Virus record (IMG/VR): IMGVR_UViG_3300010048_000003
Strand: one strand, 5' to 3'
From: an uncultured virus (IMG/VR IMGVR_UViG_3300010048_000003)
Lineage: Duplodnaviria; Heunggongvirae; Uroviricota; Caudoviricetes
DNA length: 64,000 bases
The translations under genes and the position numbers were made by a program. The notes under the pieces are model-generated. The model did not search any database, was not told the DNA's origin, and saw only the letters and a program-made list of their open reading frames with translations. Below are positions 6,367 through 62,070 of the stretch, one piece after another; the first letter of the stretch is position 1; every line of letters begins with the position of its first letter.

Positions 6367-7116
6367 CTAGTAGGGTGCCTCCGCACCGGCCTTGGCCGGC
6401 GTACGGCCCCTGCGTCGTGCGGGAGCTGGCGGCGGTGCCGCAGCGGCAGCGGCGGCGGCCTTGGATGCGTTCGACGGTCGACCGCGCTTCCTTGGTGCCG
6501 GCTCTGGCTCGGGTTCGGGTTCAACTTCGTCCTGGCGGCCAGCGCGGCGCGCTTCCCGGCGGGTGATGTTGAAGTCGGACTTCTGGAAATGCGGATACAG
6601 GGATGAGCCGAGAACCAGGAGCTTGTCCACCGGGACATCCTCCAGCGCGGCGACGTTGTCCTCGAACCACGTCACGTAGTCGGTCATCGTTGGCGACAGA
6701 TCCTTGTCCAGATACTTCTGGTAGTCGATCTGGCCATTCTCTTCCGGCTCTGGTGCCGGAGGCGGCGCTGTCTGGGTGGACCTACGTCCCCTGGCAGGCG
6801 GCATATGCGTGTCCTCTCGTTCGGACTTCGCTGAGGGGGTTCCCTTACTCTCCCGAGTATACGCCATCCGGCGAGTGGGCGCTACCCCCTTTCTAGATTT
6901 TTCTCGATGATCTTCGAGCGTGAACCGGCCGCGTCCGAGGTAACGCAGGGTAATGAATCCAGCCGAATTCGGTACCTTCCATTCCTTGTTTGGACGGCGC
7001 TTATCCATGGCTGTATAGTTAAGCGCTAGGTAGGCGTTATCCTCGCTGTAGCCGTACTCATTCATCAGTTCGGCAGCGATCGTCCTAACTCCGCGTCCAA
7101 TCATGGCAGTTGCCAC
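6367..7116 (-). CDS. Hypothetical protein; probable internal start at 6804
   Basis: 249-aa ORF; an internal promoter and RBS precede ATG 6804; core resembles the 18009 and 21313 products. Confidence 0.6.
   Translation of the reverse strand: MATAMIGRGVRTIAAELMNEYGYSEDNAYLALNYTAMDKRRPNKEWKVPNSAGFITLRYLGRGRFTLEDHREKSRKGVAPTRRMAYTRESKGTPSAKSEREDTHMPPARGRRSTQTAPPPAPEPEENGQIDYQKYLDKDLSPTMTDYVTWFEDNVAALEDVPVDKLLVLGSSLYPHFQKSDFNITRREARRAGRQDEVEPEPEPEPAPRKRGRPSNASKAAAAAAAAPPPAPARRRGRTPAKAGAEAPY
6856..6884 (-). promoter_or_regulatory. sigma70-like promoter
   Basis: TAGCGC-N17-TATACT. Confidence 0.65.
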
Positions 7117-7354
7117 AGTATCCCTCGAATACGTCGTCTGAACTGTGTGATATGTGTCCGCATCGCGGACAGGTAAAGCCTGGCGGTTCCGGTCGCGCTA
7201 CTTCGCCCTTTGGCCTGCGCACGATTTCGTCGGCGTAATCCTCGCAGGCCTGGTACTCTTCCGGGGTAAGCGGATCAGGCCATTGCTTCCCGAGTAGATG
7301 GACCTTGTCGGCGAATGCCTCGTACCACTTGTTGTCGAGTTCTTCCTCAGTCAT
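7085..7354 (-). CDS. Hypothetical zinc-ribbon protein
   Basis: FTCPRCG...GYCGNCHDWT. Confidence 0.55.
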   Translation of the reverse strand: MTEEELDNKWYEAFADKVHLLGKQWPDPLTPEEYQACEDYADEIVRRPKGEVARPEPPGFTCPRCGHISHSSDDVFEGYCGNCHDWTRS

Positions 7355-7430
7355 GGTAGCTGCAATACGAATATCGTAATGACGAATGCTACCAGAACTA
7401 CCGTCAGAGCTATGATGAATATCTTCTCTA

Positions 7431-9368: not shown

Positions 9369-9397
9369 AGTCTACCCGATCCGGGGCCTGATAGCTA
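9369..9397 (-). promoter_or_regulatory. Promoter, probably giving a leaderless helicase mRNA
   Basis: TAGCTA-N17-TAGACT with ATG 6 nt downstream. Confidence 0.6.
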
Positions 9398-9920: not shown

Positions 9921-10730
9921 TCAGAGGCGATCAAGACTGCCTCCATGTATTGCGGAGGCTTCCTGCCAGCCCGGGATGAAGTCATCGAGCATGCGCTGCC
10001 AGGCTGTCCTGAGCGGTTTATCAGGTGTGTTCGTGTAGTCTGGCCACATGCCGTGAATGATGGTCATACACTCTCGCTCGGCGGCCGTGCGCTTCTCTGG
10101 CGCCCTGAAGCGTGTATTGATACCGCCGGGCGCATAGCGCTTGCCGATTGGGTCAACCTTGACATCACAGTGAACGAGCCACGGAATTCCGTTCTTGATT
10201 CCGTGCCGTGCTAGTTCAGCATCCTCGCCGAGTGAGTGTAGCCTGATGTCAAAGTTTCCGCAATCAAGTGTTTTGCTGATGTTCAGGGCGAACACCTGGA
10301 ATCCCCAGCCACCCGGACATAGGATAGGTCCGTGATTACGGGATACCGCGCCCTGAGACATCAGGTCGTGAATGCTACGTGTTGCGCCAATGCCCAGGAC
10401 GCCTGGTTTCTTGGCTTCCTCCAGGAGTTCGTACATGTCTGTGCCGTTCTTCGGGCGCAGGTCATCGTCAGCCATGATGATGGCATCGAGAGCGGTACGG
10501 CTAGCGTGCTTGACACAGTAGTTGCGAACATAGCCAATACCGCGACCGTTCGATGGAGTGGGCAGGATGTAGACTTCCTTGCCCCACTTCATCTCTCGCT
10601 TGACGGCGGTATAGGTGGCGTACTCGTACCGGTCAACTACCAGCCTGACCTGTAGGTCTTGCTCAAGCCAGTACGGCACCACAGTCCTGATGTTGCCGGT
10701 ACGGCCCATAGTTGGAATGTAGACGACCAT
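9921..10730 (-). CDS. Glycosyltransferase, TET-associated (TAGT/GREB1-like) GT-A type
   Basis: VYIPTMGR, GIGYVRN, IIMADDD, GED and PGG motifs in the order typical of TAGT-like enzymes. Confidence 0.7.
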   Translation of the reverse strand: MVVYIPTMGRTGNIRTVVPYWLEQDLQVRLVVDRYEYATYTAVKREMKWGKEVYILPTPSNGRGIGYVRNYCVKHASRTALDAIIMADDDLRPKNGTDMYELLEEAKKPGVLGIGATRSIHDLMSQGAVSRNHGPILCPGGWGFQVFALNISKTLDCGNFDIRLHSLGEDAELARHGIKNGIPWLVHCDVKVDPIGKRYAPGGINTRFRAPEKRTAAERECMTIIHGMWPDYTNTPDKPLRTAWQRMLDDFIPGWQEASAIHGGSLDRL

Positions 10731-11352: not shown

Positions 11353-11381
11353 ATCTTACCCTAACTCGGCGCTGAAGTCTA
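11353..11381 (-). promoter_or_regulatory. sigma70-like promoter
   Basis: TAGACT-N17-TAAGAT. Confidence 0.6.
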
Positions 11382-13110: not shown

Positions 13111-13140
13111 ATTATACCGTACCACGGCGTTTGCCGGGAA
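13111..13140 (-). promoter_or_regulatory. sigma70-like promoter
   Basis: TTCCCG-N18-TATAAT followed by GTAGCG. Confidence 0.55.
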
Positions 13141-13697: not shown

Positions 13698-13726
13698 AGT
13701 ATACCGCTGCCAGGGCCGTAGCGGAA
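13698..13726 (-). promoter_or_regulatory. sigma70-like promoter
   Basis: TTCCGC-N17-TATACT. Confidence 0.6.
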
Positions 13727-15994: not shown

Positions 15995-16023
15995 AGTATA
16001 CCCGGTCAGCGGGCCTGAAGCGA
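15995..16023 (-). promoter_or_regulatory. sigma70-like promoter
   Basis: TCGCTT-N17-TATACT. Confidence 0.65.
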
Positions 16024-17176: not shown

Positions 17177-17205
17177 ATTATACCTTATCAGAGTCCGCTG
17201 CGGTA
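17177..17205 (-). promoter_or_regulatory. sigma70-like promoter
   Basis: TACCGC-N17-TATAAT. Confidence 0.6.
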
Positions 17206-17778: not shown

Positions 17779-18012
17779 TCACAGCCTTTCGTTGTCCTCG
17801 ATGACTAGCTCCAGTGCCATGCCGTCGACATGCCACTTGCCCTTGATGACCACGGTGAACGTCTCATCGCCGTGGACCTCAATGGAGTCAGTCGGCATCT
17901 CCATGAACTGAGCGATGTACCGGGCAATGGCGCTCTCAGCCACCAGGTCGATGTTGGTGTCTGGCTCGTGTTCGACGTCTGCCTCAGTAACTGAGAACCG
18001 CTTGTACTTCAT
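17779..18012 (-). CDS. Hypothetical protein
   Basis: MKYKRF start with ATGA overlap. Confidence 0.5.
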   Translation of the reverse strand: MKYKRFSVTEADVEHEPDTNIDLVAESAIARYIAQFMEMPTDSIEVHGDETFTVVIKGKWHVDGMALELVIEDNERL

Positions 18013-18497
18013 GCGGCGTCCGAGACGTTCAGGTCTGACGACTGGAAGTAGCCGTACGCCTTGCTGGCGATCATGACGATCCGCATGGTGGCGTCGTCGC
18101 TGGGGTCGATCTCCAGGCCTGGGTACTCCCTGGCGATCCACTGGGTGAACTGGACCATGGCGCGCGGGATTGGCTTGGCTGCCCACTGCTGGGCACCGGT
18201 CACGCGCTTCGTGCCGTTCGCCTTGGCCTTCCCCTTTTGGGCCGGTTGCGGCTCGTACTCCGGCAGATCGTCAGTGCAGTTCTTGAAGTCCATCTCCTCC
18301 CACAGGTATGGCTTGAAGCCTTCCTCATCCTTGTGGTCGTTGTTGATGTCGGACCAGTGGTCGGAAGCGAATGCCTCCTTGCTGGTCCAGTCGAACTGGC
18401 CCATCTCGATCTGGTCAGCCTCGCGAGGCTTGCGGTGGGAGCAGCCCTTGCGGTGGATGATGACTGAGTCGCTGACACGCCATGCCATGAGGAACAT
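18009..18497 (-). CDS. Hypothetical protein, paralog of 21313..21684
   Basis: Shared C-terminal IPRAMVxFTxWIAREYPGL...IASKAYxYFQSSDLNV. Confidence 0.75.
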   Translation of the reverse strand: MFLMAWRVSDSVIIHRKGCSHRKPREADQIEMGQFDWTSKEAFASDHWSDINNDHKDEEGFKPYLWEEMDFKNCTDDLPEYEPQPAQKGKAKANGTKRVTGAQQWAAKPIPRAMVQFTQWIAREYPGLEIDPSDDATMRIVMIASKAYGYFQSSDLNVSDAA

Positions 18498-18540: not shown

Positions 18541-18569
18541 AGGATAGCCGATGCTAAGGTGCTGCGCTA
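18541..18569 (-). promoter_or_regulatory. sigma70-like promoter
   Basis: TAGCGC-N17-TATCCT. Confidence 0.6.
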
Positions 18570-19435: not shown

Positions 19436-19464
19436 AGTATACCGCGCCAGGACGGGCTGCGCTA
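19436..19464 (-). promoter_or_regulatory. sigma70-like promoter
   Basis: TAGCGC-N17-TATACT. Confidence 0.65.
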
Positions 19465-19799: not shown

Positions 19800-20006
19800 A
19801 CGACCTCCTCATGCTTGGGTGGCTTGGCGTCATTCGGGAACTTGTCCTGACGACAGTATACACCAGGATGAATGCGGTATGCGTTGATCTCGATCCTGAT
19901 CCTGTCGTCAGTCGTCTGCGGTGGCCATTGCTGGTCACACAGGAAACATGTCCACGTCGTCTTGCGCGGAATTCCGGTATTCACTTGTATTGACCCTCCT
20001 TGTTGG

Positions 20007-20261
20007 TCAGTCCTCGTGGACGAGGTTCATGAGTGCTCGTGCTGCCTTGTGTGGGTTGTGGTAGCGTCGCACGGCACGCTCTGGCATGCCATCACCAGGA
20101 CGGAAGGCAACCGCCCATCTGGTTTCTGCTTCACGCTCGACAATGACCCTCTGGACTTCGCCAGGCTTGGCGCCAGAGACTGTCATCGTTCTGCCCTTGC
20201 CACGGCCGATGTTCATCGTCCATAGCAGGCCCACAACGAGATCTTCGTGGTCCATAAGCAT
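20007..20261 (-). CDS. Hypothetical protein
   Basis: AAAGGA RBS before MLMDHED. Confidence 0.5.
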   Translation of the reverse strand: MLMDHEDLVVGLLWTMNIGRGKGRTMTVSGAKPGEVQRVIVEREAETRWAVAFRPGDGMPERAVRRYHNPHKAARALMNLVHED

Positions 20262-20626: not shown

Positions 20627-20795
20627 TTTTCTGTTTTCCCATCGGTGTCAAACAGGAGGGTATCCCTCTTGTTTTTGGGGGCATCTTGCTGAGGAGGGTA
20701 ACCCTCCTTTTTGTATTGCCAGTCCTTGCGGACTGGAATGCCTAGGGAATTGATTTTCCCTAGACAAACCAGATCACAGGATTGTTGTTGTCGTG

Positions 20796-21149
20796 TTACT
20801 TGTCCCAGTACTCGCCATGCTCGGCGAGGTTACAGCCGCACTCTAGCACTGCCCAGGACAGACCCTCCCCGGCAAAACCGGAGTTGTAACCGGAGCGCAC
20901 GATCCGTGTTGGCCCATGCTTTTCGCATTCTGCCGCGTCATCGTGTTCGGGGATCTCCTTCCAGGAATTGTCCTGGTCCTCAGGGATGAGTTCGAACTCA
21001 TCTGCCGGATTGGGGATCTCCCCTGCTGCTGCCTTGGCTGCCTCGACCACGCGGTCGGAATCGGCATGCCGCGGCACATAGTGTGTTGTCGCGGCGATCG
21101 AACTGGCGACGGCATTTTCGACGTCGCAGTTGTGCGCGTGCTTGGCCAT
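20796..21149 (-). CDS. Hypothetical protein
   Basis: GAGGAG RBS; CEKHG...LECGC. Confidence 0.6.
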   Translation of the reverse strand: MAKHAHNCDVENAVASSIAATTHYVPRHADSDRVVEAAKAAAGEIPNPADEFELIPEDQDNSWKEIPEHDDAAECEKHGPTRIVRSGYNSGFAGEGLSWAVLECGCNLAEHGEYWDK

Positions 21150-21312
21150 TTGGCTCCTCTATGTTGTTTTTCGACCTGGCTCTTCAGCTCGGGTAGGTCA
21201 GCTCCCGAAGACACAACACGCCCATCGGTGCTATGTTTCGCCTGTATTCGATTTTCGGTAAAGCGGAGGGTTACCCTCCGGATTTCTCCGGAGGGTAATC
21301 CTCGCGAAATTC

Positions 21313-21684
21313 CTAGACGTTAAGGTCCGACGACTGGAAATACCGATACGCCTTACTCGCGATCGTAACGAGCCGCTCCGTACGATCGTCCGCGCGGCCG
21401 TTTTCGCCTAGCGCGATTCCGAGTCCCGGATATTCCCGCGCGATCCACTTCGTAAAGCCGACCATAGCGCGCGGGATATCCTTAGTCCCGTAATTCCCGG
21501 GACCGGAATTTCCGCGCGACGCGATAGCCGCCTCTTTTTCGGCGCGTAGCGACTCGATTTCCGCGCGAAGCCTCGCGATTTCGAGTAGTTCGCTCTCGGA
21601 AACCGGCGCGGGAAGAGTAGACGTCTTTTCCGAGACTTCGCCCTTAGCCGGGGTCGCCTTAGAGGAAATAACGCTTCGCTCCAC
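21313..21684 (-). CDS. First early gene, with CA/TG-purged coding sequence
   Basis: Paralogous domain to 18009..18497; directly downstream of two tandem promoters. Confidence 0.75.
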   Translation of the reverse strand: MERSVISSKATPAKGEVSEKTSTLPAPVSESELLEIARLRAEIESLRAEKEAAIASRGNSGPGNYGTKDIPRAMVGFTKWIAREYPGLGIALGENGRADDRTERLVTIASKAYRYFQSSDLNV

Positions 21685-21770
21685 TTTTTTCTCTTTTCTA
21701 TTTCGGGGTAGCCGAATTAAGCCGGACTTTTCCGGGTTTCGGGTACGCCTATTACGAGCCCGTCGAGGGG

Positions 21771-21941
21771 CGATTTTTAGAAAACGCTACCGCTTTTTAC
21801 GCGCCGCGCTTTTTCGCGAAATTCGCGTTTCCGCGTTTCCCGCTACCGCTAGTCTACCCGAGTTTCGCGTTTTCCGCTAATCGGCTCGTTTCGCGTCGCG
21901 AAAGTCCTAACCGATTTTAAGGAAACGCTACCGCTTTTACG
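21771..21941. repeat. Imperfect ~30-bp direct repeat pair
   Basis: CGATTTTTAGAAAACGCTACCGCTTTTTACG (21771) and CGATTTTAAGGAAACGCTACCGCTTTTACG (21912). Confidence 0.75.
21851..21879 (-). promoter_or_regulatory. Early promoter
   Basis: TAGCGG-N17-TAGACT. Confidence 0.65.
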
Positions 21942-21990
21942 AGCGAGTCGCGAACCGTCGCGATCCGGAACTTCCCGGCCCGACGAAAAA

Positions 21991-22019
21991 AGACTACCCG
22001 ACCGGTTTCCGGGAAGCGA
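21991..22019 (-). promoter_or_regulatory. Early promoter
   Basis: TCGCTT-N17-TAGTCT. Confidence 0.6.
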
Positions 22020-22244
22020 ATAAGTCTTTCGAAGGACTAGTCTTCGGATTTCGTTCGAATTACGGAAGGGGTAAATTCGAAAACCGCGCCGCGCGTCGCG
22101 AACGGCCGGAACCGCTACGATACCCCTAGACGGGCCGGAAAGGCGCCTCTCGCGCGACGAAACGCCGGTCGCGGGTATTAGCTAGGGTCCGTTTTCCGAC
22201 GCCGCTACGGCGAAAAGATATCGAAAGACTTTTACCAATAGTCG

Positions 22245-23078
22245 TTCGTAGTCGAGTAAGGTCAAACGTCGCGATCGTAGTCGACTAAGGTCAAACGTCT
22301 CGTACGTAGTCGACTAGACGATCGTAGTCGAGCGCTACGTTTGTAGTCGACTAGCTCGTTCGTAGTCGACTACCCAAAGGTAACGATTAGGTTACGGATT
22401 TGGTATATAACGATCTCGTAACGCTCTATCGTAGTCGACTACTAGACTGCAGTCGACGACGTCGACGACTACGAACGTAGTCGACTACTCAAAGACGTAC
22501 GAACGTAGTCGACTAGTCAAACGTAGTCGACTAGTCAAACGTAGTCGACTACTCAGATACGTACGAACGTAGTCGACTACTCGACTACAATAGAGCGCTA
22601 CGATTGTAGTCGACTACTCGATTGTAGTCGAGTTCGCGATTGTAGTCGACTACTCGACTACAATAGAGCGTCGCGAGTGTACTCGACTACAAACGAGCGC
22701 CATCGGTGAGGGTGGCGAATTCTCGAAGCCCATCGGTCGCAGTAGGGAGTTCCTATTTGCAGTCGACTACAGTCAGGGAGTTCCTATTACAGACGACTGG
22801 GGTCGAGTGGGATGGACTGCAGTCGACCGGGGTCAGATGGGGTCGACTACCCCCGGCTGCACTCGATGCGAGGCGAACCCAATCGAGCGCAGGTGACTGG
22901 GCTGGACTGTAGTCGACCCCAAGCGAGCCCATCGGTGGCCCATCGGTCGCAGTCGACTACACCCAGAGTGCAGACGTAGTCGGTCGATCGTCCTCAACTG
23001 CATTCGAGTGTAGTCGACCGCAATTTACTGCACGCGACGCCCATCGGTGACGATTGGCCGCAGTCGACTGCAGTCGAG
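22245..23078. repeat. Array of GTAGTCGACTAC-like palindromes with CCCATCGGT repeats
   Basis: More than 20 full or partial copies with irregular spacing. Confidence 0.9.
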
Positions 23079-24919: not shown

Positions 24920-24948
24920 ACTATAGCGCGTCGGGCCGGAAAAGGGAA
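24920..24948 (-). promoter_or_regulatory. sigma70-like promoter
   Basis: TTCCCT-N17-TATAGT. Confidence 0.6.
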
Positions 24949-24951
24949 CCC

Positions 24952-25593: not shown

Positions 25594-25622
25594 ATCCTAC
25601 TCTACCGGCCGGTAAAAGGGAA
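25594..25622 (-). promoter_or_regulatory. sigma70-like promoter (divergent pair)
   Basis: TTCCCT-N17-TAGGAT. Confidence 0.55.
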
Positions 25623-25652: not shown

Positions 25653-25681
25653 TAGCTTTGGGACATGTTCCGAGGTATACT
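25653..25681 (+). promoter_or_regulatory. sigma70-like promoter for primase/helicase
   Basis: TAGCTT-N17-TATACT. Confidence 0.65.
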
Positions 25682-28286: not shown

Positions 28287-28318
28287 TCGACCGTCGTCGG
28301 GCTAATCCGATTCGGGTC

Positions 28319-28347
28319 TAGACGGATCGGTCGCGATCGAGTACGAT
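28319..28347 (+). promoter_or_regulatory. Promoter of the packaging operon
   Basis: TAGACG-N17-TACGAT. Confidence 0.65.
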
Positions 28348-39075: not shown

Positions 39076-39332
39076 TGGCTCAGTCAGAAGAGCATTCAAA
39101 TATGCCGGCTCAGCTCCTGAAGTACTGGACTGAAGGAGCCGGAGCGGCCAAGCTTCACTGGGGAGTTCCCGGTGACTTTGATACCTGCCTCGCGGTAGTT
39201 GGCAAGTACGTGCCGGCCGCGATGGTCAAGGGGATGTGCGCCAATCTACATAGGCGCGCAACCGGAGGATGGCCCGGGCATGCTCCGGGCCTAGAAGAAT
39301 CTCTCTCGGAAGCTCGGAAAAAGAGGGGCTAG
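39075..39332 (+). CDS. Small head-module protein
   Basis: YWTEGAGAAKLHWGVPGDFDTC...CANLHRRATG.WPG pattern seen in actinophage head modules. Confidence 0.65.
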   Translation: MAQSEEHSNMPAQLLKYWTEGAGAAKLHWGVPGDFDTCLAVVGKYVPAAMVKGMCANLHRRATGGWPGHAPGLEESLSEARKKRG

Positions 39333-39358
39333 ACGCGGGAGCGAAGCCGTAGTATAAT
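39330..39358 (+). promoter_or_regulatory. Promoter for scaffold/capsid genes
   Basis: TAGACG-N17-TATAAT. Confidence 0.7.
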
Positions 39359-49152: not shown

Positions 49153-52100
49153 GCGTTGACCAGTTTCTCATTAACCCGGACTTTGCGGACGAGTACTTCG
49201 AGGGTGGTACTCCTGGTAATGTTATTGATACTACTCACACGACCTTCAACAATGTAACGAATTCTTATGCTAATGCTTATTTCAGCATTTTTGGGTATGC
49301 CGGTCAGGGCTGTAATGCTTGGGGGCAAACCTATACATTTGGCAATGACGTCGGGATGGGCGGCTGGAATGTACTACCGTCGAGTGGGCAGGCCTACTCA
49401 CAAATAGCTAATTTTCAGTCATACCCGCCGCGTAACGTTATCATTGCTAGGATGCAGACATCTGCGAGCGCAGCTATAGCTGATCTTGTTCTTCAGACTA
49501 ACGGTTACCTACAGATAGTCAACAACTCTAGCGTCGGACTAGTTACCAGCAACAAACCGGTTCCGCTGAACAAATGGGTCATGATCAACTTCACCGTCTT
49601 CCCTGATCCATCAAAGGGATACGCGAAGATTGACATATTCTATTCACCTACCGAGGCAGTGCCTGACGACACTTCCTCTATGAACAATCTTGCGATACCA
49701 GGCGGTTCGCCGGGCAAGGCATGGTTCGGTCTTGAGACTCGATTCGCAGTAACATGGAATGCTGAAGCCATAACGAATCTCAGTTCCTCGGTAGCAGTTG
49801 CCTCATCGCTCGCGGTATTTCAGGCGAACGGCTTTACATATACTGATACTAATTTCGGACATAATCAGACGATACCTAATCCCGCGTCGGCTACGTTTAC
49901 TTCGACGCATACGAAGTCGGTTGACTGGGGCGTTGAGCTTCACACGATTCCGTATGCCTATGGGGCATCACCTGCGCCATCGATCAATTATATCAATACT
50001 TACAACCAGTTTGCCGAGATTCCGCAGGGTGTTAATATAGGCACTTACACTGGCGCGTCCGCTACTTCGCATACGTGTACTGTTACCGGCGGTGGTTCGC
50101 TCGCTAATTGCGGCATCTTCGTCGCCGTTGCGATGGGAGGATTCGGCGCTTCATCTGCTACTGTAACTGATAGTGCAGGGAATGTTTACACGCAGGTTGG
50201 ATCACTAAATCTTGATGGCTATACTAATGTTCCGCTGCTTGTATTCCAGGCTAACCAGCCGTCAAAGGCATTGATTAGTGGAACAAGTACTGTTACGGTA
50301 ACGCCGAATGCTGCAACCCCATGTAATTTCTCAATCACTTATGTTTATAATCTGACTGCGATGGTGACGTTGCGGGATAGTGAGCATGCTACAAGTGCTT
50401 CGATATCGACTGCTACCGGAGCACTACCTTCTATCGCTCAGACTGTTTTGACTTTTATATACAGCGGTGGTGCTGGCGGAACTCCGGCATTTGGATCAAA
50501 TACAACTTTTGTGAGTAATACGCAAGGACAGGGTGTTGGCCTAGTCACAGTCGGGTTCCAGACGAATACTGGTTCAGGCAGTGTCGCGACGACAGCGACC
50601 CTACCTTCCGGTTCAGCTGCATGGTGTGCCATGACGTTTAGTGCTACGACTGTAGTCGTTACCGGGCATTTCAATATTCAGCAGGCAGTTGCTAGCCGGT
50701 ACGTATACATCATGGTGTGTACTTCCGGCGCGGTAAGTGGTTCACCAGTCATTGCCGATAATCACGGGAATGCGTATTCACAGATAGCATTCATTGCGCT
50801 TCCGACTGGGCAGCGCGTATTCCTGATGCAGTCGAATGCTGCTGTTACGTTCGCCATCAATGACTGGTATACTATCACATCCGGGTATGCGATTAATGGC
50901 TGGTCTGAAGTCTTTTCAATGATCGGCCTAACGGCTACAGCTACGGTATATGATGATACCGGTACGAGTGCTACGCCTACGGTCCCGAATGTCACCATAG
51001 GGACTGGCAATCACGCAGTCCTATGGATAGGCGGTAATGATACTGAAGCTGAGGTAGTTCCGGTTGGGTTCACCCACCTTAATCCAGGCAGCGGTTCCGG
51101 GGGAACTGGTGGATACGCGGGCGTATATGCTGGACTAGGTGTAGCGTATTATGCTGATCGTACCGGTACGATGGTAATCAATCCGGACTGGATATATGAT
51201 GACTTCAATGCTGCAATAGTTTATACTGGTAATTGGGGCAACACTCAGAACGGCCAGAACTTGACACCGCCTGCGACGTGGTATGGTGGTACGCAGCACT
51301 TCTCGAATATCACGGGGAATTATGCTACGCTTAACTTCAACATGCCTATGAGCGGTAGTCTGTACGTTCAGTTCTCTGTCGATACGAACAGAGGTATAGG
51401 ATCTATATCAATTGATGGCGGAACTGCTGTCCTTATTGATACGTATTCATCAACTCTACATAATAACTTCATTGTATGGGAATCTCCAGTTCTGGCTAGA
51501 GGTAGCCATACGATAGTCATTACGGTAACCGGAACGAAGAATGCGGCTTCATCTGCTTACTATGTCGGTATTGATGCATTCTCGAATATGCCCATTGTAA
51601 GTGGGTATGGTACTATACCGTCTGGTGATTCTTCACTAGTTAATATCGTGTCGACTAATGTTGCTACATCAGGTTCATTCTCAGTTACCGATACTCAGGG
51701 CAATGCTTATACCCTCGTGATGTCAAATACGGCTCCTGGCAATGTCGTGTCGCAGTTCGTATTCGCTTGCCTGAGCCCGAAGGCGCTTGGTGCGAGCGAT
51801 ACAATTTCGGTTACCTGTACTACGTACTTTGAGGGGTATGCGTCTGCGTACGGTATGCAGGGACTATACTCGCTTCTCGCTACGGCTCCTGGCGGCAGTG
51901 TTACTTCTAATACTGTTGATATGAAAGTGAGCGTTTCTAATTCGTGGGCTCCTGTACTTATATCCGCGACGGTCGCGGTTATAGGATCGGTACCGTCGCC
52001 TAATGGCCTATGGACTGCTATAGATAACTTGGCTATGTCTGGCACCCTCGCCGGAACGATATCGCAGAACCTATCGTTTAACGTGATGTCAAATGGTATG

Positions 52101-53390
52101 CCGACTAACTGGGGATATTATTTTGACAATTGTTCAGTTAAGCTTTTCACGAGCGTGCCTGCGCCACCTGATCAAACGGTATGGGTCGATGTACTTAACA
52201 CCAACTTCGTTAGTCAAGGTATGATCCAGTTCGCGACTGTCACCGCGACGCTCTACTACAATGCGGTTGGAACATGGACTATCCTAGCGCCGTACTCGGA
52301 CTGGTTGTGGAAAATCGCTACCGGCGGTGACTTCATCGTCAGAGTTAACTGGCGCAACATGTTTGAATTTGGTGGCAAATGTGAACAGCCAGGGTACGTC
52401 GATTCGATGCCTGGCTCGACCGGCGCGGGATCTGGGCCATCAGGTAGTTACTCCGGTCCATTTATAATGCTGACCGGTGGTGACTATCTTCAGATACTCG
52501 CAAACCGGATATGCTATCCAGATCCTACTAGCGACTGGGCACATCAGCGTCCATCGAATAAGGATATAGTTGTCAATGTCCCGCTTGAGACAGCTATCAA
52601 GCATTATGTTTCGGTGAATGCTGGACCTGGTGCATTGTCTGCGCGTAGACATCCATCACTAGTTATCGCTACTGATCAGGGACGTGGTCCGGCTGTAAAC
52701 TATAGTGTTCAGTTCACGTCGGGCGTTGATCTTGGCCTGCTCGATGTTATACGCGCGCTTATCGCGCAAGCCTACCCGACGAATGTTGCTGGAGGTATGG
52801 GGTTTAGGATTACCAGAACAGGCACCAATCTTACATTCGACGTCTTCACGCCGGTTGATAAGTCGCAGACTGCGTACTTCTCGGAACAGCTCGGGAACCT
52901 TACATCCATCAACTTCTCTTTGACAGATCCAACATGTACTGATGCTCTTGTACAAGGTGTTAATAGGTTCGTGTCACAGACTAATTCGGCCGTCACCCCA
53001 TGGACTAAGACTGAGGTGTATGTTGATGACACTTCGAATGCGGATGCTAAGACTCTTACTACCACGGCACAAAATGAATTGTTCTCCGGTACATTCGGGC
53101 CTACCATGGGCGTAACCGCTTCCGATACGCCGTTCTGTATTTATGGACGTGATTATGTACTAGGCGATATAGTGACTGTCGAAGTCCGTACGACTCCGAC
53201 GCTCATATCGTATACTGATGTTGTTTCTAGTGTACAGCTTACTGCCGATCCTTCACAAAGTCCGATACTGAATGTTATCCCCACAATAGGGAACTCTACT
53301 GATCCAACGTCCTCGGGCAAGACCCTTACCAATCAGCTTACTGCGCGTATCAAGAAACTTGAGAAGAATATGCGGGCCAAGGGAAGATGA
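49149..53390 (+). CDS. Large minor tail protein: adhesion domains fused to a C-terminal baseplate hub domain
   Basis: C-terminal ~400 aa with YNAVGTW and YGRDYVLGDIVTV; lectin-like N-terminal modules. Confidence 0.75.
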   Translation: MSVDQFLINPDFADEYFEGGTPGNVIDTTHTTFNNVTNSYANAYFSIFGYAGQGCNAWGQTYTFGNDVGMGGWNVLPSSGQAYSQIANFQSYPPRNVIIARMQTSASAAIADLVLQTNGYLQIVNNSSVGLVTSNKPVPLNKWVMINFTVFPDPSKGYAKIDIFYSPTEAVPDDTSSMNNLAIPGGSPGKAWFGLETRFAVTWNAEAITNLSSSVAVASSLAVFQANGFTYTDTNFGHNQTIPNPASATFTSTHTKSVDWGVELHTIPYAYGASPAPSINYINTYNQFAEIPQGVNIGTYTGASATSHTCTVTGGGSLANCGIFVAVAMGGFGASSATVTDSAGNVYTQVGSLNLDGYTNVPLLVFQANQPSKALISGTSTVTVTPNAATPCNFSITYVYNLTAMVTLRDSEHATSASISTATGALPSIAQTVLTFIYSGGAGGTPAFGSNTTFVSNTQGQGVGLVTVGFQTNTGSGSVATTATLPSGSAAWCAMTFSATTVVVTGHFNIQQAVASRYVYIMVCTSGAVSGSPVIADNHGNAYSQIAFIALPTGQRVFLMQSNAAVTFAINDWYTITSGYAINGWSEVFSMIGLTATATVYDDTGTSATPTVPNVTIGTGNHAVLWIGGNDTEAEVVPVGFTHLNPGSGSGGTGGYAGVYAGLGVAYYADRTGTMVINPDWIYDDFNAAIVYTGNWGNTQNGQNLTPPATWYGGTQHFSNITGNYATLNFNMPMSGSLYVQFSVDTNRGIGSISIDGGTAVLIDTYSSTLHNNFIVWESPVLARGSHTIVITVTGTKNAASSAYYVGIDAFSNMPIVSGYGTIPSGDSSLVNIVSTNVATSGSFSVTDTQGNAYTLVMSNTAPGNVVSQFVFACLSPKALGASDTISVTCTTYFEGYASAYGMQGLYSLLATAPGGSVTSNTVDMKVSVSNSWAPVLISATVAVIGSVPSPNGLWTAIDNLAMSGTLAGTISQNLSFNVMSNGMPTNWGYYFDNCSVKLFTSVPAPPDQTVWVDVLNTNFVSQGMIQFATVTATLYYNAVGTWTILAPYSDWLWKIATGGDFIVRVNWRNMFEFGGKCEQPGYVDSMPGSTGAGSGPSGSYSGPFIMLTGGDYLQILANRICYPDPTSDWAHQRPSNKDIVVNVPLETAIKHYVSVNAGPGALSARRHPSLVIATDQGRGPAVNYSVQFTSGVDLGLLDVIRALIAQAYPTNVAGGMGFRITRTGTNLTFDVFTPVDKSQTAYFSEQLGNLTSINFSLTDPTCTDALVQGVNRFVSQTNSAVTPWTKTEVYVDDTSNADAKTLTTTAQNELFSGTFGPTMGVTASDTPFCIYGRDYVLGDIVTVEVRTTPTLISYTDVVSSVQLTADPSQSPILNVIPTIGNSTDPTSSGKTLTNQLTARIKKLEKNMRAKGR

Positions 53391-56425: not shown

Positions 56426-56697
56426 CCCGAGCACTCGTCTGGCATCTGTGGCGAATACTGTCGGTGTTCATAGCCGCGCTGATCATCAACGTAGTCGCCA
56501 CAGATGTCGTCAAGAGTCTCAGCAAGGAATCAATCCTTGACTGTGTCATCATCGCAGCATTCATTGCGTTCGGTGCTGAGATTATCGGTCCGCGCGCATT
56601 CACCGGAGGGAGGCGTCGTGCTAAGCCAGCAACAACTGTGGGACCTGGAACTGGAACAGCTATACAAGGAACGGGAGACGACGGACCCCGACCCTGA
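56404..56697 (+). CDS. Probable holin
   Basis: Two hydrophobic segments, directly after the endolysin. Confidence 0.5.
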   Translation: MDRAGNLARALVWHLWRILSVFIAALIINVVATDVVKSLSKESILDCVIIAAFIAFGAEIIGPRAFTGGRRRAKPATTVGPGTGTAIQGTGDDGPRP

Positions 56698-57223
56698 GAT
56701 GTGGCGGTGGAGTCCTCTTGAACTGCGTGAGTTCGACAGGATGCTTACTGTCGCTATCCACATGTTCCCAGGACAGCACGAGATCTCGTTCTGTGAAGCC
56801 GGATGCGGTATCGGCACAAAGCTATACCTGGCCGAGAAGTATCATGGCCTGACGGCGGTAGGCTACGAGATCTCTGAAGACTATCTAGCCAAGGCACTCG
56901 CCATAGAGGTCGATGCCCGGTACATGGACCTGCGGACGGACTCGCCGCCGTGGGCCGAGTATGATATCGTGTATACCGCGCGACCGTTCAAGGATGACGA
57001 GTTCGAGTCAGCCTGGGAGTCTTCGGTTCAGCGCGCGATGCGTCCCGGCGCGGTATTGATGATGGCCTACACGGCGCATAAGCCGTATGCCTGGCCGTGT
57101 TACTACCGGGCGCCATTTCGGGGCGTATGGGTGAAGCCGCAACCGCGTATCCCCGGCGTATACGACCAGATGATCAGGCGGCAAGAACCGCATGATCCGC
57201 TAGTGAAGGAGCCGGGCCCATGA
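56618..57223 (+). CDS. Class I SAM-dependent methyltransferase
   Basis: EAGCGIG, GYEIS, YDIVY, MRPGA. Confidence 0.8.
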   Translation: MLSQQQLWDLELEQLYKERETTDPDPEMWRWSPLELREFDRMLTVAIHMFPGQHEISFCEAGCGIGTKLYLAEKYHGLTAVGYEISEDYLAKALAIEVDARYMDLRTDSPPWAEYDIVYTARPFKDDEFESAWESSVQRAMRPGAVLMMAYTAHKPYAWPCYYRAPFRGVWVKPQPRIPGVYDQMIRRQEPHDPLVKEPGP

Positions 57224-57507
57224 CAGAGAGATCGCCAGAAGTAACACCATTGGCCAAGCCTGCGGTGCCTGCGACGTACTCGGCGCTCATAAGCGGTAGT
57301 GGCTGGTATGTCATCTGGGGATCAACTGCGCCGAATCCTGGCATGACTCAGATGATTATTGCCTTCGGACTTGGCACTACTAGCAACGTCATCGAGCCAA
57401 TAGTGTCTAGTGCAGGTGTCCCTACTGCCGCTACATCTATCAGTACCGACTACCTGCTAGCGAACCCGCAAGAGAACCAGGCCTATACCGGCCTTACTGG
57501 TACGTAG
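57220..57507 (+). CDS. Hypothetical protein
   Basis: ATGA overlap. Confidence 0.5.
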   Translation: MTERSPEVTPLAKPAVPATYSALISGSGWYVIWGSTAPNPGMTQMIIAFGLGTTSNVIEPIVSSAGVPTAATSISTDYLLANPQENQAYTGLTGT

Positions 57508-57717
57508 TCGGCCGGTTACGTAGAGCGACGTATAGCTACGCGGCTCTAGGATCGATTCTAAGAGCCTATCGAGCCTAGCCGTACCCGAGAGTCCCGGGAG
57601 GGGGAGATAGGCCCGCTCCGTTCGGCTCCGGGCCGGCAAGGAGTCTGTCTTTCGGGCCGGTTCGGAGCCGGTAGGGCCGAGGGGTATGGTTTAGACATAG
57701 TCGACCGTAGTCGACTC

Positions 57718-58329
57718 CTAGATGATGTGAGTCTTGAGGTGGCCGATGTTGACCGAGGTGTCGACGCAGATATTGTATCCTAGGCTGATCGCTCGAATAC
57801 AGAAGGTGACATCCTCACCGGCAAGATATTCGCCCATCGGGATCTCCTGGAACCACTGGGCGGCCTTATTGGGCAGCTTCTCCTGGATGTCTAGGAACAC
57901 CTGCCGGTGGACTAGGAGGCAGCCCGCGCCGGTCGCGTCCACGTCAACAACCTCGCCTTGTTCATACTCGGTGATGGCCCGGTATGCCGGCGTCCCGTTC
58001 TCGTCATCAGGCTCACGCCGGAACATCGACGGGTACTTCGGGAGGTCATTGATATGAACGAGTCCGCCTATGATCGCCTCGTTACGCTTGAGTAGGCGCT
58101 CGATCGTATTCCGGTTGAAGACGGTATCGGTATCGGCCATATATAGCCACTTGTTACCAGACTCTAGGAACTGCTCGACTAGTTTGTTCCGCGCGGTCGA
58201 TATGTTAGCGCTCGACCAGTAGTCAAGGGTGTCGATACTCATGTACCGGATGAGGTTCACCAGCGAGTGCATAAACCCGGCGTGGACGTGATCGTTGTGG
58301 ACGTACCCGATAGTGACTGAGGTTGTCAT
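57718..58329 (-). CDS. GT-A (family 2-like) glycosyltransferase
   Basis: ARNKLV..FL..WLYMADTD, ATGAGCLLV, GEDVTFC, GHLK. Confidence 0.85.
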   Translation of the reverse strand: MTTSVTIGYVHNDHVHAGFMHSLVNLIRYMSIDTLDYWSSANISTARNKLVEQFLESGNKWLYMADTDTVFNRNTIERLLKRNEAIIGGLVHINDLPKYPSMFRREPDDENGTPAYRAITEYEQGEVVDVDATGAGCLLVHRQVFLDIQEKLPNKAAQWFQEIPMGEYLAGEDVTFCIRAISLGYNICVDTSVNIGHLKTHII

Positions 58330-58330: not shown

Positions 58331-58576
58331 TCACTTCCCATGTTCGTGATCAACTTCGCCGTACAGGCTTAGCCGGTGTATGGTGTCGTGGAATGTGCGA
58401 TAGCACTCTTCAACGTAGTCGCTGGCGAATGGTGGTAGAGTGTACTGTCCGGCGAGAGATTCGCTATGCCTAACGGACATATGTTTTCTGAAGTTCCATT
58501 CATCCATGTCATCAGCATTCCTGACGACTATCTTGAGATCTACATTCTCTTGCGGTGTCATGGTTACCTCCATCAA
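58331..58576 (-). CDS. His-rich hypothetical protein
   Basis: KHMSVRH...HDTIHRL..DHEH. Confidence 0.6.
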   Translation of the reverse strand: MMEVTMTPQENVDLKIVVRNADDMDEWNFRKHMSVRHSESLAGQYTLPPFASDYVEECYRTFHDTIHRLSLYGEVDHEHGK

Positions 58577-60822
58577 TTATCAGGATCGAGAACCCATATC
58601 TCATCTACCGTGATAGGCGTGCCGAATCCGGAGATCCGGTTGCCGGATATGATGACTACATCATGATTGATCTTGATTGTCCCTAGCTTGCCCTGGATAG
58701 TCGGGAACCGGAACCGGTTGACCCTAGCATATACCTCTTCGTCGCCTACATCGTAGCAGTGTAGGGTAGCTCGTTTGATGAGGTCAGGGCGCTTGATGGT
58801 CTTGAGGATCTCCTCCACTTCCTTGCCGGTACGGGACCGTTCGTCTTCGACTATGTCTTTGTACTCGACCTTTCTGACCATCCCCATATAGATGACTTGC
58901 TTACCGAATCGCCAGATCTTGTGGGTATGATGTTGGTCTACTGTCATCGCGGCGAGCTGATCCCCGCTATGCGTCGGGAGGGGAGCGAGTCCCTTGCCCG
59001 GACCCCTGAGGAATCGCCTGACCGACGATAGGCGCTTCTCCGTCCGGTACAGCCCGAATGGGTCTTTCGCTAGCGTCCACTCCTCCATACGGGCGATAGT
59101 CTTGTCGCCTAGGCCGGGAATCGCCTTGAGTTCAATCCAGTCATCGAATCCATAGTGACCACCGAATGCCTCTATGCGTTCTGCGATTGCCGGGCCGACC
59201 TTTGGCATCTGACGCCATCCGGCGACTAGCCCGACATTCGGCACTGCTTGCCAGGTGGCGCGGGATAGCTGTAGTGATGGCGGCTTAACGTCTATGCTAT
59301 GAGCTAGGGCGTCACGCATAAGACGGAACTGAGTGTCGGCTACTGTGGCTTTTGCCAGGCTCGCCGCGTAGAACTCGACTGGATAGTTTGCCTTTAGCCA
59401 TGCCGTCCAGAATGCTAGCATCGAGTAGGATACTGCGTGCGCGATATTGAAGGCATAAGTGCCGGAGGTTACGAGCCGGTTCCAGATCTTCTCGGCCATC
59501 TCCCGGTCGATGTTGTGGAGTCGTTTCGCACCCTCTGCGAACTCATCGAAGTTCTGCTGGAATGCGGCTTGGCCTGCTTTCTTCGCGATGATGCGCCGGA
59601 TGTGGTGGACGTTCGTCCAGGACAGATCCCCTACCTCTTTGAGACAGCGGAGGATATGTTCCTGGTAGATCATTTGTCCGTAGGTGTCCTTCGTGATCTC
59701 ATCCACGATGGGGTGTAGAGGGGTAGCTCGTTTACGACCGTGACGTACTTCGATGTACTCTGCGGTCTGTCCGGAAAACAAAGGGCCAGGACGCGATAGC
59801 GCATTGATGTCCGTGATATGCATGAAGTGATCTGGATGAACGTCTCGGTTGACAAGCCGAGTAGCTCTACCTTCAAACTGAAATACTCCCACGACGTCTC
59901 CAGAGCGGAATATCTCGATTGCTCTAGGATCAGTATCCGGTATGGCATATAGATCCTCCAGAGTTAGTCCGGTCATCCGGAGACAACGAGAGATCATCCC
60001 CATAGTCGATAGGCCCAGGAAGTCTAGCTTGAGAACGCCGACATACTCGGCGTCATACTTGTCGATTGAGAGTACACGCTCTCCGTCCTTCTCGTATACC
60101 GCGCAGACGTCGGTGAGCGGAGAGTTGGCTACCATTAGGCCGCAAGCATGGACGGACATTCCGCGTACGTCGCTCTCTAGGCGACTTGCTTTTGCGAGGT
60201 CAGGGTACTCATCAAGGACTGCCTTCGCAGCCGGGAACATCTCAAAAGTGTCTTCGAGCGTAGCGTCGGCTCGCGAGTCGCCACCCGACCTCTCTATGGC
60301 TAGATTCGCTACTGCTTCTTTTGCGTAGAGCGGTATGCGATAGACAGTCGAAACGTCAGCAAGACTATTCTTGGCACGGTACCGGACGAAGTTGCCTATG
60401 TGGCCGACACATTCCGCACCGTACTTGTAGGCGATGTAGTCATAGACCTTGAAGCGTTCTTCGTCAGAACAGTCGACGTCGATGTCGGGCGGGTCGTGTC
60501 GGGTAACGTCAAGGAATCGTTCAAAGATCATACCCGGATACTTCCATGGATTGATCTCGGTGATCCTTGTCATATAGGCTACGTCGGACGCGGCGGTGCT
60601 GCCCCGGCCGGGGCCTATCGCTACATCATTGTCCTTAGCCCAGCGGATCGTGTCGGAGGTGAATAGCATGAAGTCGGCTAGGTCTTTGCCGAGGATCATA
60701 TCCATCTCTCGGCGGATTCGCGCGCCGTGCCAGTCCTGTTCGACCTGCGGTAGCCTGCCTATTCGGCGATAGTTCCAGCCCTGTCGAAGCCAGTACCACA
60801 ATAGATCATCAGAGTCGCTCAT
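58573..60822 (-). CDS. dnaE: DNA polymerase III alpha, polymerase part of a split gene
   Basis: GPGRGS, PDIDVD, SVHACG, LKLDFLGL, YQE, YAFNIAHA. Confidence 0.92.
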   Translation of the reverse strand: MSDSDDLLWYWLRQGWNYRRIGRLPQVEQDWHGARIRREMDMILGKDLADFMLFTSDTIRWAKDNDVAIGPGRGSTAASDVAYMTRITEINPWKYPGMIFERFLDVTRHDPPDIDVDCSDEERFKVYDYIAYKYGAECVGHIGNFVRYRAKNSLADVSTVYRIPLYAKEAVANLAIERSGGDSRADATLEDTFEMFPAAKAVLDEYPDLAKASRLESDVRGMSVHACGLMVANSPLTDVCAVYEKDGERVLSIDKYDAEYVGVLKLDFLGLSTMGMISRCLRMTGLTLEDLYAIPDTDPRAIEIFRSGDVVGVFQFEGRATRLVNRDVHPDHFMHITDINALSRPGPLFSGQTAEYIEVRHGRKRATPLHPIVDEITKDTYGQMIYQEHILRCLKEVGDLSWTNVHHIRRIIAKKAGQAAFQQNFDEFAEGAKRLHNIDREMAEKIWNRLVTSGTYAFNIAHAVSYSMLAFWTAWLKANYPVEFYAASLAKATVADTQFRLMRDALAHSIDVKPPSLQLSRATWQAVPNVGLVAGWRQMPKVGPAIAERIEAFGGHYGFDDWIELKAIPGLGDKTIARMEEWTLAKDPFGLYRTEKRLSSVRRFLRGPGKGLAPLPTHSGDQLAAMTVDQHHTHKIWRFGKQVIYMGMVRKVEYKDIVEDERSRTGKEVEEILKTIKRPDLIKRATLHCYDVGDEEVYARVNRFRFPTIQGKLGTIKINHDVVIISGNRISGFGTPITVDEIWVLDPDN

Positions 60823-61001
60823 ATAATTTCCCAGCTTCCATGGAATGCGTTAAAGAACCAGTCATTCCGGCCGTATAGGGAAAGCTCATTGAAAAGAAAT
60901 TCATGATCCATCTCGTCACTGTAGCCGGTATCGATGATGTAGAAACCGCATATCGCACAGAGGCCGACGACATGACTGATGTAGATGTCCTGCTTCACCA
61001 T
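60819..61001 (-). CDS. Small ORF inserted between the two dnaE parts
   Basis: Overlaps both neighbours; CAICG. Confidence 0.55.
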   Translation of the reverse strand: MVKQDIYISHVVGLCAICGFYIIDTGYSDEMDHEFLFNELSLYGRNDWFFNAFHGSWEII

Positions 61002-61942
61002 GGCTCCCAGTCGGAGTCTTTGATTGGGTAGGTAAGTCGTTCTGCCTTTGGCAGGGTTACCGTACATTGCTCGGCTATGCGCTCAGTATTGAGGATAGCC
61101 TCCCATGCTGCGGCGCGGGATAGGCCGGTCTTCATCAGGCGTTCGCCGAGTTGCTTGTCGGACTCGGGGAACGTCATAGGGACGTCATAGTTCCAGGCGC
61201 GTAGTGCGTCGTCTATGGATTGGTTCTTTCGGTGTACTGCGTGGAGTATAGCCTGCATCTCAGAATCTGCTGGTCTGGGGTAGTGGACATCACACGTTGC
61301 GACAAGTGGAACTCCAGTCTCCCGGCTGAGACGTTCGTAAGCTGGATTGATGCGGCAGGTCTTTTCAAGCTCGTAGAAGGGCTGGACTTCGAGGTAGTAA
61401 TTGGCCCCAAATAGAGAGGCAAAACGGCGGATGACGCGTCGTGCGTCATCCCATCCATAACCGTCTCTAGACGTGGGATCGGCGATCCCCTTGCCTCCGA
61501 CAAGAGCGCATGCGAGCATGCTACCAGTGCATCCTGAAAGTACGACAAGATTCTCGTGATTGTCGACCAGATTCTGTCCAGAAACTGTCGGATGGTAGTG
61601 ATGATCTCGCCAAGACTGTGTGACAAGGCGGTTGAGGTTTCGGTATCCATTTGCGTTCTCCGCGAGGATCGTGAGGTGATACTTCCATTGGCTACGGTTT
61701 TCGCCTACCGGCCCGCAGTACGCCTCTAGCCCAAATATCGGCTTCAGCCCTAGCTTCAGGGCGGCCTGCTCGAACTGGAAGTGACTAGACGTACCGCCAT
61801 GCTCTGTAAGGGCTTGCGCGGTATAGCCTAGCTCTACAGCCCGCGCTACGTGGATAGCTGGTAGCTTGTGGCCATCACCGTGACTGAAGGTCGAATGGTG
61901 TAAGTGGTGAAGTGATACGTAGCGTATCTTGTTCTTCACCAT
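60995..61942 (-). CDS. dnaE: DNA polymerase III alpha, PHP domain of a split gene
   Basis: HSTFS.GDG, ALTEHG, KPIFGLEAY, HLTILA, TCDVHY. Confidence 0.9.
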   Translation of the reverse strand: MVKNKIRYVSLHHLHHSTFSHGDGHKLPAIHVARAVELGYTAQALTEHGGTSSHFQFEQAALKLGLKPIFGLEAYCGPVGENRSQWKYHLTILAENANGYRNLNRLVTQSWRDHHYHPTVSGQNLVDNHENLVVLSGCTGSMLACALVGGKGIADPTSRDGYGWDDARRVIRRFASLFGANYYLEVQPFYELEKTCRINPAYERLSRETGVPLVATCDVHYPRPADSEMQAILHAVHRKNQSIDDALRAWNYDVPMTFPESDKQLGERLMKTGLSRAAAWEAILNTERIAEQCTVTLPKAERLTYPIKDSDWEPW

Positions 61943-62070
61943 AGATCACCTCCGGATATATGATATGGCGGTTCGGACAAAGCTATTGACAGTACCAATA
62001 GCAGTAGTAGTAGTGCTAGGATGATACCCGAGACTAGTATATCGCGCCAGTCGTACGTACGTCTAGTCAT
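61936..62070 (-). CDS. 44-aa single-pass membrane protein
   Basis: Manual translation MTRRTYDWRDILVSGIILALLLLLLVLSIAL...; overlaps both neighbours. Confidence 0.55.
   Translation of the reverse strand: MTRRTYDWRDILVSGIILALLLLLLVLSIALSEPPYHISGGDLW
62036..62065 (-). promoter_or_regulatory. Possible promoter for dnaE
   Basis: TAGACG-N18-TATACT. Confidence 0.5.

Follow-up and report, generated by a model that had tools for sequence, protein, structure and literature searches.

Why do the predicted promoters of an uncultured phage avoid the dinucleotides TG and CA? We addressed this question in the uncultured Caudoviricetes virus IMGVR_UViG_3300010048_000003, of which a stretch of 64,000 nucleotides, referred to as the window, was analyzed. 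CA is the TG step read on the opposite strand, and the housekeeping -35 consensus TTGACA holds both TG and CA. The explanation that we favor, and consider likely, is that the phage places a bulky modification on the T of TG in its own DNA and that its promoters were recoded to avoid a clash with RNA polymerase. Two parts of it are held with greater confidence, since we judge it highly probable that the window phage is modified at TG and equally so that, given such a modification, the modified base is T. The original prediction had described 17 promoters with hexamers free of TG and CA, all of which are predictions from sequence:

6856..6884 (-): TAGCGC-17-TATACT
9369..9397 (-): TAGCTA-17-TAGACT, helicase
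11353..11381 (-): TAGACT-17-TAAGAT, upstream of the DUF6011 and TAGT genes
13111..13140 (-): TTCCCG-18-TATAAT
13698..13726 (-): TTCCGC-17-TATACT
15995..16023 (-): TCGCTT-17-TATACT
17177..17205 (-): TACCGC-17-TATAAT
18541..18569 (-): TAGCGC-17-TATCCT, before the paralog at 18009-18497
19436..19464 (-): TAGCGC-17-TATACT
21851..21879 (-): TAGCGG-17-TAGACT, within the TG/CA-free cassette
21991..22019 (-): TCGCTT-17-TAGTCT, within the cassette
24920..24948 (-): TTCCCT-17-TATAGT, in an 83-bp TG/CA-free run
25594..25622 (-): TTCCCT-17-TAGGAT, RuvC-like gene
25653..25681 (+): TAGCTT-17-TATACT, primase
28319..28347 (+): late promoter TAGACG-17-TACGAT, HNH/terminase, in a 79-bp free run
39330..39358 (+): late promoter TAGACG-17-TATAAT, scaffold/capsid, in a 92-bp free run
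62036..62065 (-): TAGACG-18-TATACT, DnaE

All 17 were present with the listed hexamers, with 17-nt spacers in 15 cases and 18-nt spacers in the two at 13140 and 62065. They thus display features of the SigA/sigma70 type, namely, a TAnnnT -10 box, a 17- to 18-nt spacer, a -35 box starting with T, and a position ahead of same-strand genes. TG/CA was found inside neither hexamer in any promoter (0/17), and no -35 box starts with TTG (0/17). Three local CA/TG-free patches, already noted in the original prediction, were reproduced to within 1 nt (24881-24963, 83 bp; 28280-28358, 79 bp; 39282-39373, 92 bp). The avoidance holds for the hexamers but not for whole promoters, as TG/CA occurs within the spacer or at the junction with the -35 box in 11 of the 17, leaving 6 that lack it all the way from -35 to -10. 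The reported lack of an extended -10 TGn was true of all promoters (TG at -15/-14, 0/17) but was not significant in this set alone, where about one was expected. The 11 hexamers, combined with TAnnnT at spacers of 16 to 19, match 43 places, and the selection of the 17 rests on context. A hexamer starting with T lacks TG/CA 34% of the time in this DNA, corresponding to a nominal chance of 1e-8 for 17/17; because selection by eye may have used this very trait, tests blind to the -35 box were run.

Among 117 anchors picked in the window by the -10 box alone, TTG at spacer 17/18 occurred twice (2.3 expected) and TAG nine times (3.0 expected). The 680 anchors of eight close relatives gave similar results, with 16 TTG (16.3 expected) and 60 TAG (19.2 expected). 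A fixed rule that permits TTG retrieved 12 window promoters, none with TTG. Motif discovery by expectation-maximization (EM), conducted with no -35 prior on 239 upstream regions from the window and the eight close relatives, returned 79 sites, including 39 with TAG, 23 with TTC, 6 with TCG, and 2 with TTG; EM on groups B and D gave no clean motif, and their -35 counts were left out. The controls were four cultured relatives without a gene of the TAGT glycosyltransferase family (partial genomes, 90 upstream regions) and, for the fixed rule, three cluster H/R phages. In the four relatives, EM detected 21 sites, of which 6 had TTG and 9 TAG. The difference in TTG between the EM set and these relatives gave a Fisher p of 0.0009 with samples that are not independent. 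TG at -15, as in an extended -10, was found in 0/79 of the pooled EM promoters. The concern that TTG promoters had escaped the search by eye was thus addressed by unbiased motif discovery, and the -35-blind scans revealed no TTG excess; TTG promoters appear not to have been missed in the window phage. A consensus promoter scanner returned 8 sites compared with 8.9 expected, as it requires TTGACA-likeness. The fitting consensus for such comparisons is probably the actinobacterial one rather than TTGACA; it is given as TTGCGA, also TG-containing, in passages of PMC1616969.

The same loss of TTG is visible in a phage with a chemically measured modification. According to excerpts of a preprint (PMC12191111, Yee et al. 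2025), the Pbunaviruses F8 and 14-1 carry a sugar-modified T in a TG motif. Mapped start sites of 14-1, PAK_P3, LUZ24, LUZ19, and YuA were taken from part of the supplement of PMC10914365. TTG at -35 (spacer 16-19) was present in 1 of the 26 mapped sigma70 promoters of 14-1; counts made by eye for phages assumed to be unmodified were 48/59 in PAK_P3, 8/10 in LUZ24, and 4/4 in LUZ19. The -35 hexamers TAGACG, TCGCTT, and TTCCCT are common to 14-1 and the window.

Genome-wide, the CA/TG frequency of the window is normal (rho 1.01). In the 17 promoters, the region from -17 to +20 contains 17 TG/CA, compared with 76 expected, and the region from -22 to -17 is at background. The 79 EM promoters showed TG/CA at 8/395 positions in -17..-12, 21/553 in -7..+1, and 27/711 in +1..+10; for the 21 promoters of the controls without TAGT, the values in the same three zones were 12/105, 13/147, and 28/189. 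The pooled rate from -17 to +10 was 0.02 to 0.04 per base versus 0.09 to 0.15 in these controls, and the window background was 0.129 in coding and 0.109 (479/4382) in promoter-free intergenic DNA. With the fixed rule, the promoter core contained 7/192 TG/CA in the window (0.036), 47/1104 in the relatives (0.043), and 33/224 in the three H/R phages (0.147), in which 10 of 14 hexamers contained TG/CA. Ordinary actinobacterial promoter grammar with shared descent would make the absence of TG/CA incidental, SigA tolerating TAG and TTC -35 boxes and ancestral promoters having been copied. TAG boxes do occur in relatives without avoidance (9/21, and also in Konstantine), several early promoters share downstream sequence, and passages of PMC1616969 describe mycobacterial -35 boxes as poorly conserved. 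However, such a grammar cannot yield depletion beyond the hexamers, which is unseen in the control phages, nor the 993-bp block and the probable ATT/ATC starts described below, and we regard it as quite unlikely.

Of the TG steps that remain, those with T on the top strand lie at -20..-23 and -39..-46, those with T on the bottom strand at -18, -26..-30, and -47..-52. Helical phase was assessed with a 10.5-bp period and a 3-bp cross-strand offset, as expected for the C5 groups of T in the major groove. In 17-bp promoters, the leftover TG showed a phase with R=0.42 (p=0.0003), with 0.67 for the window alone and 0.34 (p=0.014) for the relatives alone; in the set of 18-bp promoters, which was not used in picking the offset, R was 0.62 (p=0.0003). 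The shared phase of tolerated TG corresponds to about -19, -29, and -40. Known sigma contacts lie near -34 and -14, and the tolerated phase faces away from them, so that spacer TG apparently lies on one helical face. We consider the helical phase suggestive only.

The offsets expected for the A or the C of CA did not fit (p=0.74 and 0.61), whereas that expected for G (2.5) fits too (R=0.34, p=0.0003). The tetranucleotide TGCA, which would place two marked T's across one groove, occurs at 0.16 to 0.35 of expectation in the close TAGT group, whatever its flanks, at 0.58 to 1.07 in cultured relatives without TAGT, at 0.26 in YuA, and at 0.73 in 14-1. A mark on the G of TG, of the 7-deazaguanine type, or on another base would suit both the offset for G and the depletion of TGCA, in which G marks would be adjacent. 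Scans of 91 proteins against PHROG and 67 against Pfam revealed no deazaguanine pathway family, the TAGT and ThyX-like genes point to pyrimidines, and the best phase offset is that of T; a marked base other than T is therefore very unlikely in our estimation. T is favored because precedent and geometry point to the T of TG. Relatives G005, G010, and G014 differ in that CA/TG is depleted genome-wide (rho 0.74-0.85) and TG is tolerated just after the -10 box. CCAA/TTGG is also depleted in these three and CCGA/TCGG in G005 and G014, and their target context may differ.

The most extreme avoidance is found in a cassette that contains two of the predicted promoters, and a paralog of its gene serves as an internal control:

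21244..22236 (-): TG/CA-free cassette of 993 bp, 4 TG/CA compared with about 123 expected, GC 56%, with two promoters, one gene, and a downstream hairpin
21313..21684 (-): cassette gene, 123 aa, with a low-complexity N-terminus, a long helix, and a conserved helical domain of ~55 aa
18009..18497 (-): paralog sharing the C-terminal domain, TG/CA normal (75 in 489 bp, with 32 at codon junctions)

All four TG/CA of the cassette lie in its gene, at the GTG start, one Met, one Trp, and one Gln, and none is at a codon junction. The survivors are thus all codon-forced, and the GC content is unchanged, which argues for selection on the cassette DNA and not for mutation bias. Local erosion by C deamination in CA, as in fungal repeat-induced point mutation, would agree with a slight rise of TA in the cassette (1.19), but the GC content is still 56%, CG rises most (1.98), the survivors are exactly the codon-forced sites, and CA/TG is 1.01 genome-wide; its probability is close to negligible.

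The same cassette gene is present in G003 and G008, with free runs of 689 and 684 bp, and in G015, with about 1 kb across the circular join. None of the three has ATG, GTG, or TTG near the Shine-Dalgarno site. G003 and G008 have an in-frame stop 15 nt before ATT, and their first ATG is ~90 codons into the frame; in G015 AGGAGG lies 8 nt before an in-frame ATC; the starts thus appear to be ATT, ATT, and ATC. The protein family has about 60 representatives. No Atlas match, Pfam family, or Foldseek match at E<=0.001 was found for the cassette protein (best VIA Z 3.8), and these null fold searches do not demonstrate a new fold. The cassette in G003 (51594-52475) and G008 (727-1590) is oriented opposite to that in the window and G011, with TG-rich, strand-biased flanks, and no joint of such an inversion was seen at the cassette in the contigs of four runs. 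The six strain differences listed within it do not create TG/CA, a number too small to weigh.

Two further explanations bear on the cassette. If, as in T7 or T5, the DNA injected first had to lack a site recognized by the host, the position of the cassette at the head of the small-gene arm, beside a repeat-rich region where assemblies break, would be expected. But promoters between 6.9 and 62 kb, the late head and packaging ones among them, show the avoidance and are separated by normal DNA; G003 carries the cassette in the orientation opposite to that in the window; and a two-base restriction site is implausible. We thus hold an injection-order effect to be highly improbable, in agreement with the original prediction, which had preferred modification of the phage's own DNA. 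Alternatively, the DNA may be modified at TG with avoidance driven by a host modification-dependent nuclease or sensor of the END or type IV kind; the unmodified cassette would survive and make an inhibitor, and the promoter pattern would be secondary. Passages of PMC12191111 report that END nucleases attack hypermodified phages and that Pbunaviruses encode a needed inhibitor; moreover, a whole TG-free gene with a non-canonical start suits a need to stay uncut, and the cassette protein is small and of no known family. This alternative leaves unexplained the polymerase-shaped avoidance at the 15 non-cassette promoters, the permissive spacer, and the loss of TTG in 14-1, and is unlikely as a general account, although nuclease escape may be right for the cassette alone.

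Several repeats were observed around the cassette. CCGATGGG occurs 7 times (window 20645-23087) and is also present in G003, G008, and G011, and the palindrome GTAGTCGACTAC occurs 7 times just upstream (22362-22653); both are candidate binding sites of a phage protein. A further palindrome, GGAGGGT-n-ACCCTCC, lies between early genes at 13641, 19534, 20693, and 21265. One metagenome strain lacks 19989-20261 and has ACCCTCC at the joint, which suggests that early genes are gained and lost as modules.

The favored explanation, modification of T in TG with recoded promoters, starts from four observations: the pattern itself in the sequence, the fact that it is conserved, the set of genes present, and the missing TTG in the mapped promoters of 14-1. 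The T of TG steps would carry a bulky group in the major groove, most probably a sugar attached to the C5 substituent of thymine. The phage has no RNA polymerase of its own, and the host SigA holoenzyme must therefore read the marked DNA. TG/CA would be selected away where the polymerase grips the groove or opens the helix, at the -35 hexamer and from -16 to about +10; TAGACG, TAGCGC, and TCGCTT would represent the nearest TG-free forms of TTGACA, TTGCGC, and TTGCTT. Spacer TG would be tolerated, mainly on the face pointing away from the polymerase. The cassette would have to function before any other factor can deal with the mark, hence its lack of TG/CA from promoter to terminator, and it would be expressed first, unmarked. 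We propose, tentatively and with somewhat less than even confidence, that its protein allows the modified genome to be transcribed or to survive. The avoidance is cleanest at late promoters, suggesting that progeny DNA already carries the mark by the time of its transcription. In line with a clash, bulky major-groove groups block bacterial RNA polymerase at promoters, according to passages of PMC11550810.

The window is the nearly complete genome of a lytic, actinophage-like siphovirus in which neither tRNA nor RNA polymerase genes were found. An overlapping record (G001) closes the map at 64,715 bp with 715 further bases, in which the only genes are an HNH gene and the beginning of the ThyX-like one. 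The genes of relevance here are as follows:

58573..61942 (-): split DnaE-type DNA polymerase, nearest cultured matches in mycobacteriophage cluster D (46%)
9921..10730 (-): GT-A glycosyltransferase of the TAGT family (PF20691), E 6.5e-10, 39.7 bits over a cut-off of 27.5, residues 2-92
63301..64000 (-): divergent ThyX-like gene, 5' end beyond the window and read on G001, RQR for RHR, RLC motif
1188..1964 (-): FAD oxidoreductase with a loose resemblance to UDP-galactopyranose mutase or amine oxidase, a candidate for supplying the sugar donor
215..922 (-): gene resembling HAD phosphatases / nucleotidases
2331..2684 (-): MazG-like protein, recognized by eye from sequence, no Pfam or NCBIfam match

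The FAD oxidoreductase was found in 126 records, every one an actinobacterial phage, and from the relatives of this enzyme and of DnaE we infer an actinobacterial host. The metagenome runs containing the phage are from soil. No close cultured relative was found, as megablast matched only a capsid fragment; a tblastn search of 50,697 phage records gave no match to TAGT, and a search of bacterial genomes gave one weak unrelated match and no host clue. The TAGT model is a confident GT-A fold with a conserved DD motif (D89/D90), its 111 homologous matches are nearly all metagenomic, and G012 (3132-4759) contains a tandem pair of TAGT genes. The ThyX-like enzyme has no equivalents of His53 and His79. 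We see an even chance that TAGT writes the mark while the ThyX-like and FAD enzymes supply acceptor and donor. The convergent junction is bordered (window 56618-58329) by genes for an S-adenosylmethionine methyltransferase, which 11 of the 16 TAGT records contain, and for a second glycosyltransferase; these enzymes may act on virion glycans or the DNA sugar.

A number of results weigh against the favored explanation. The best fold matches of the TAGT model are protein O-glycosyltransferases, and some mycobacteriophage glycosyltransferases modify virion proteins. A TET/JBP dioxygenase was detected neither among the window proteins nor in five records, three of them at least 90% complete (PF12851, 0/5), and Pfam (67 proteins) and PHROG (91 proteins) scans revealed neither a 5hmU (5-hydroxymethyluracil) DNA kinase nor an aGPT-Pplase/amino-acid transferase, although very remote homologs could escape them; the route to a sugar acceptor is thus an assumption. 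The ThyX/FAD/HAD set is also present in clusters D, DV, AE, and BN, which show no avoidance and often use TAG -35 boxes; these cultured actinophages may carry modified DNA too. With 9/21 in cultured relatives without avoidance, TAG-type -35 boxes alone are not diagnostic. TAGT does not predict the block, which is present in 3 of the 16 TAGT-bearing records fetched, with a weaker, TGC-rich one in G011. It is absent from five records rated at least 90% complete (G004, G006, G010, G014, and G018), of which G004 breaks at the flank, so that the block may be missing from that record. The phase test was devised after the profile had been seen and on promoters that share ancestry, TA and GG gave p<0.01 at some offsets among 24 phase tests, and EM groups B, C, and E had no helical phase. 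In the comparison phages, 14-1 had no match to the TAGT profile at E<=1 and, in the start sites available, neither depletion beyond the -35 box (0.10-0.14) nor a helical phase; YuA had TTG in 3 of 12 usable promoters, derived from 14 of 21 table rows; and the long TG/CA-free block is absent from both.

Two other TG/CA-free regions were noted. In addition to a 64-bp free run with a long TA tract after the primase gene (27979-28042), within an inverted repeat and a possible replication origin, there is the following region:

57499..57717: convergent intergenic region where the late and replication operons meet, lacking TG/CA over a run of 139 bp and containing none of the 17 promoters

This convergent junction is TG/CA-free over 139 to 224 bp in several genomes (G003 23714, G008 31493, G007 22569, G012 21643), its sequence is not conserved, and it is possibly a terminator, origin, or small RNA that needs to stay unmarked.

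Taken together, we tentatively propose, at odds a little below even, that soil actinophages of one clade attach a sugar to the T of TG by a route not described before (a flavin-dependent ThyX-like enzyme and TAGT, with no TET/JBP or kinase), that the mark blocks the host polymerase so strongly that its footprint and helical face were imprinted on the promoters and non-ATG starts were imposed in a modification-free 'boot' cassette, and that the small new protein of this cassette enables the polymerase to act on modified DNA. The hypermodification of phage DNA is commonly viewed as cost-free nuclease armor; the present finding points to a transcriptional cost, which would have reshaped promoter consensus, codon choice, and start codons. 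A 2019 paper stated, in the part considered here, that the effect of hypermodification on promoter strength was still to be studied (PMC6449724). If the explanation is true, a lack of TTG in -35 boxes, a signature derived here and not a published criterion, would be a general sequence-only test for TG-hypermodified phages, and hidden modifications and their sequence context could be spotted from sequence alone. The start-site data of Pbunavirus already show this signature. It also names candidates for biochemistry, namely, the divergent ThyX, TAGT, the FAD protein, and the first-expressed cassette protein. Modification in a TG context was already known; what is added here is the promoter-wide footprint, a possible helical phase, the TAGT route without TET/JBP, and the loss of TTG in the mapped promoters of 14-1. 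In the open-access literature, which was the scope of our search, we found no report linking -35 choice or TG-free regions of a phage to its own TG modification, and the passages of PMC10914365 on 14-1 start sites do not link the loss of TTG to DNA modification.

Known systems resemble the window phage in different respects. Thymidine hypermodification prefers TG in M6, ViI, and SH-Ab 15599, according to passages of PMC6449724, PMC8989533, and PMC13458397. As far as these sources go, the pathway of M6/YuA, ViI, phiW-14, and SH-Ab 15599 comprises a hydroxymethylase of the ThyA type, a 5hmU DNA kinase, and a transferase for amino acids or amines, whereas none of these was detected in the window. 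YuA shares with the window a strong depletion of TGCA and mostly non-TTG -35 boxes (TTTACT, TCGCCT, TAGCCC) at the start sites available. With base J and the phage systems that combine TET/JBP and a glycosyltransferase, the window has in common the TAGT family (PF20691) above the Pfam cut-off, but neither a TET/JBP dioxygenase nor a ParB partner was found in it. Base J affects transcription. The characterized phage cytosine systems with TET/JBP and a glycosyltransferase work at GpC (PMC13229309; bioRxiv 10.1101/2023.12.21.572611). Phages of clusters D, AE, BN, and DV (PBI1, Leopard, Rooney, and Xenia2) have DnaE, ThyX-like, FAD oxidoreductase, phosphatase, RuvC, and primase genes and a promoter layout like those of the window; in contrast, they have no TAGT match and no TG/CA depletion at promoters, and 6 of 21 -35 boxes start with TTG.

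A close parallel is 14-1, in which TG modification was measured, whereas for the window phage it is inferred only. Both phages depend on the host polymerase and have DnaE, HAD, FAD-binding, MazG-like, and DUF6011 genes. They also share a divergent ThyX (31% identical, tblastn E 1e-29) with the same His losses and RLC motif; the FAD and HAD proteins match weakly (E 0.14, gp66, and 0.25). The -35 change is common to the window phage and TG-modified 14-1, and the wide footprint and the cassette are more extreme in the window phage, where a larger group or a more sensitive polymerase would perhaps account for the stronger effect. With its mapped non-TTG promoters, the cultured 14-1 makes a direct test possible.

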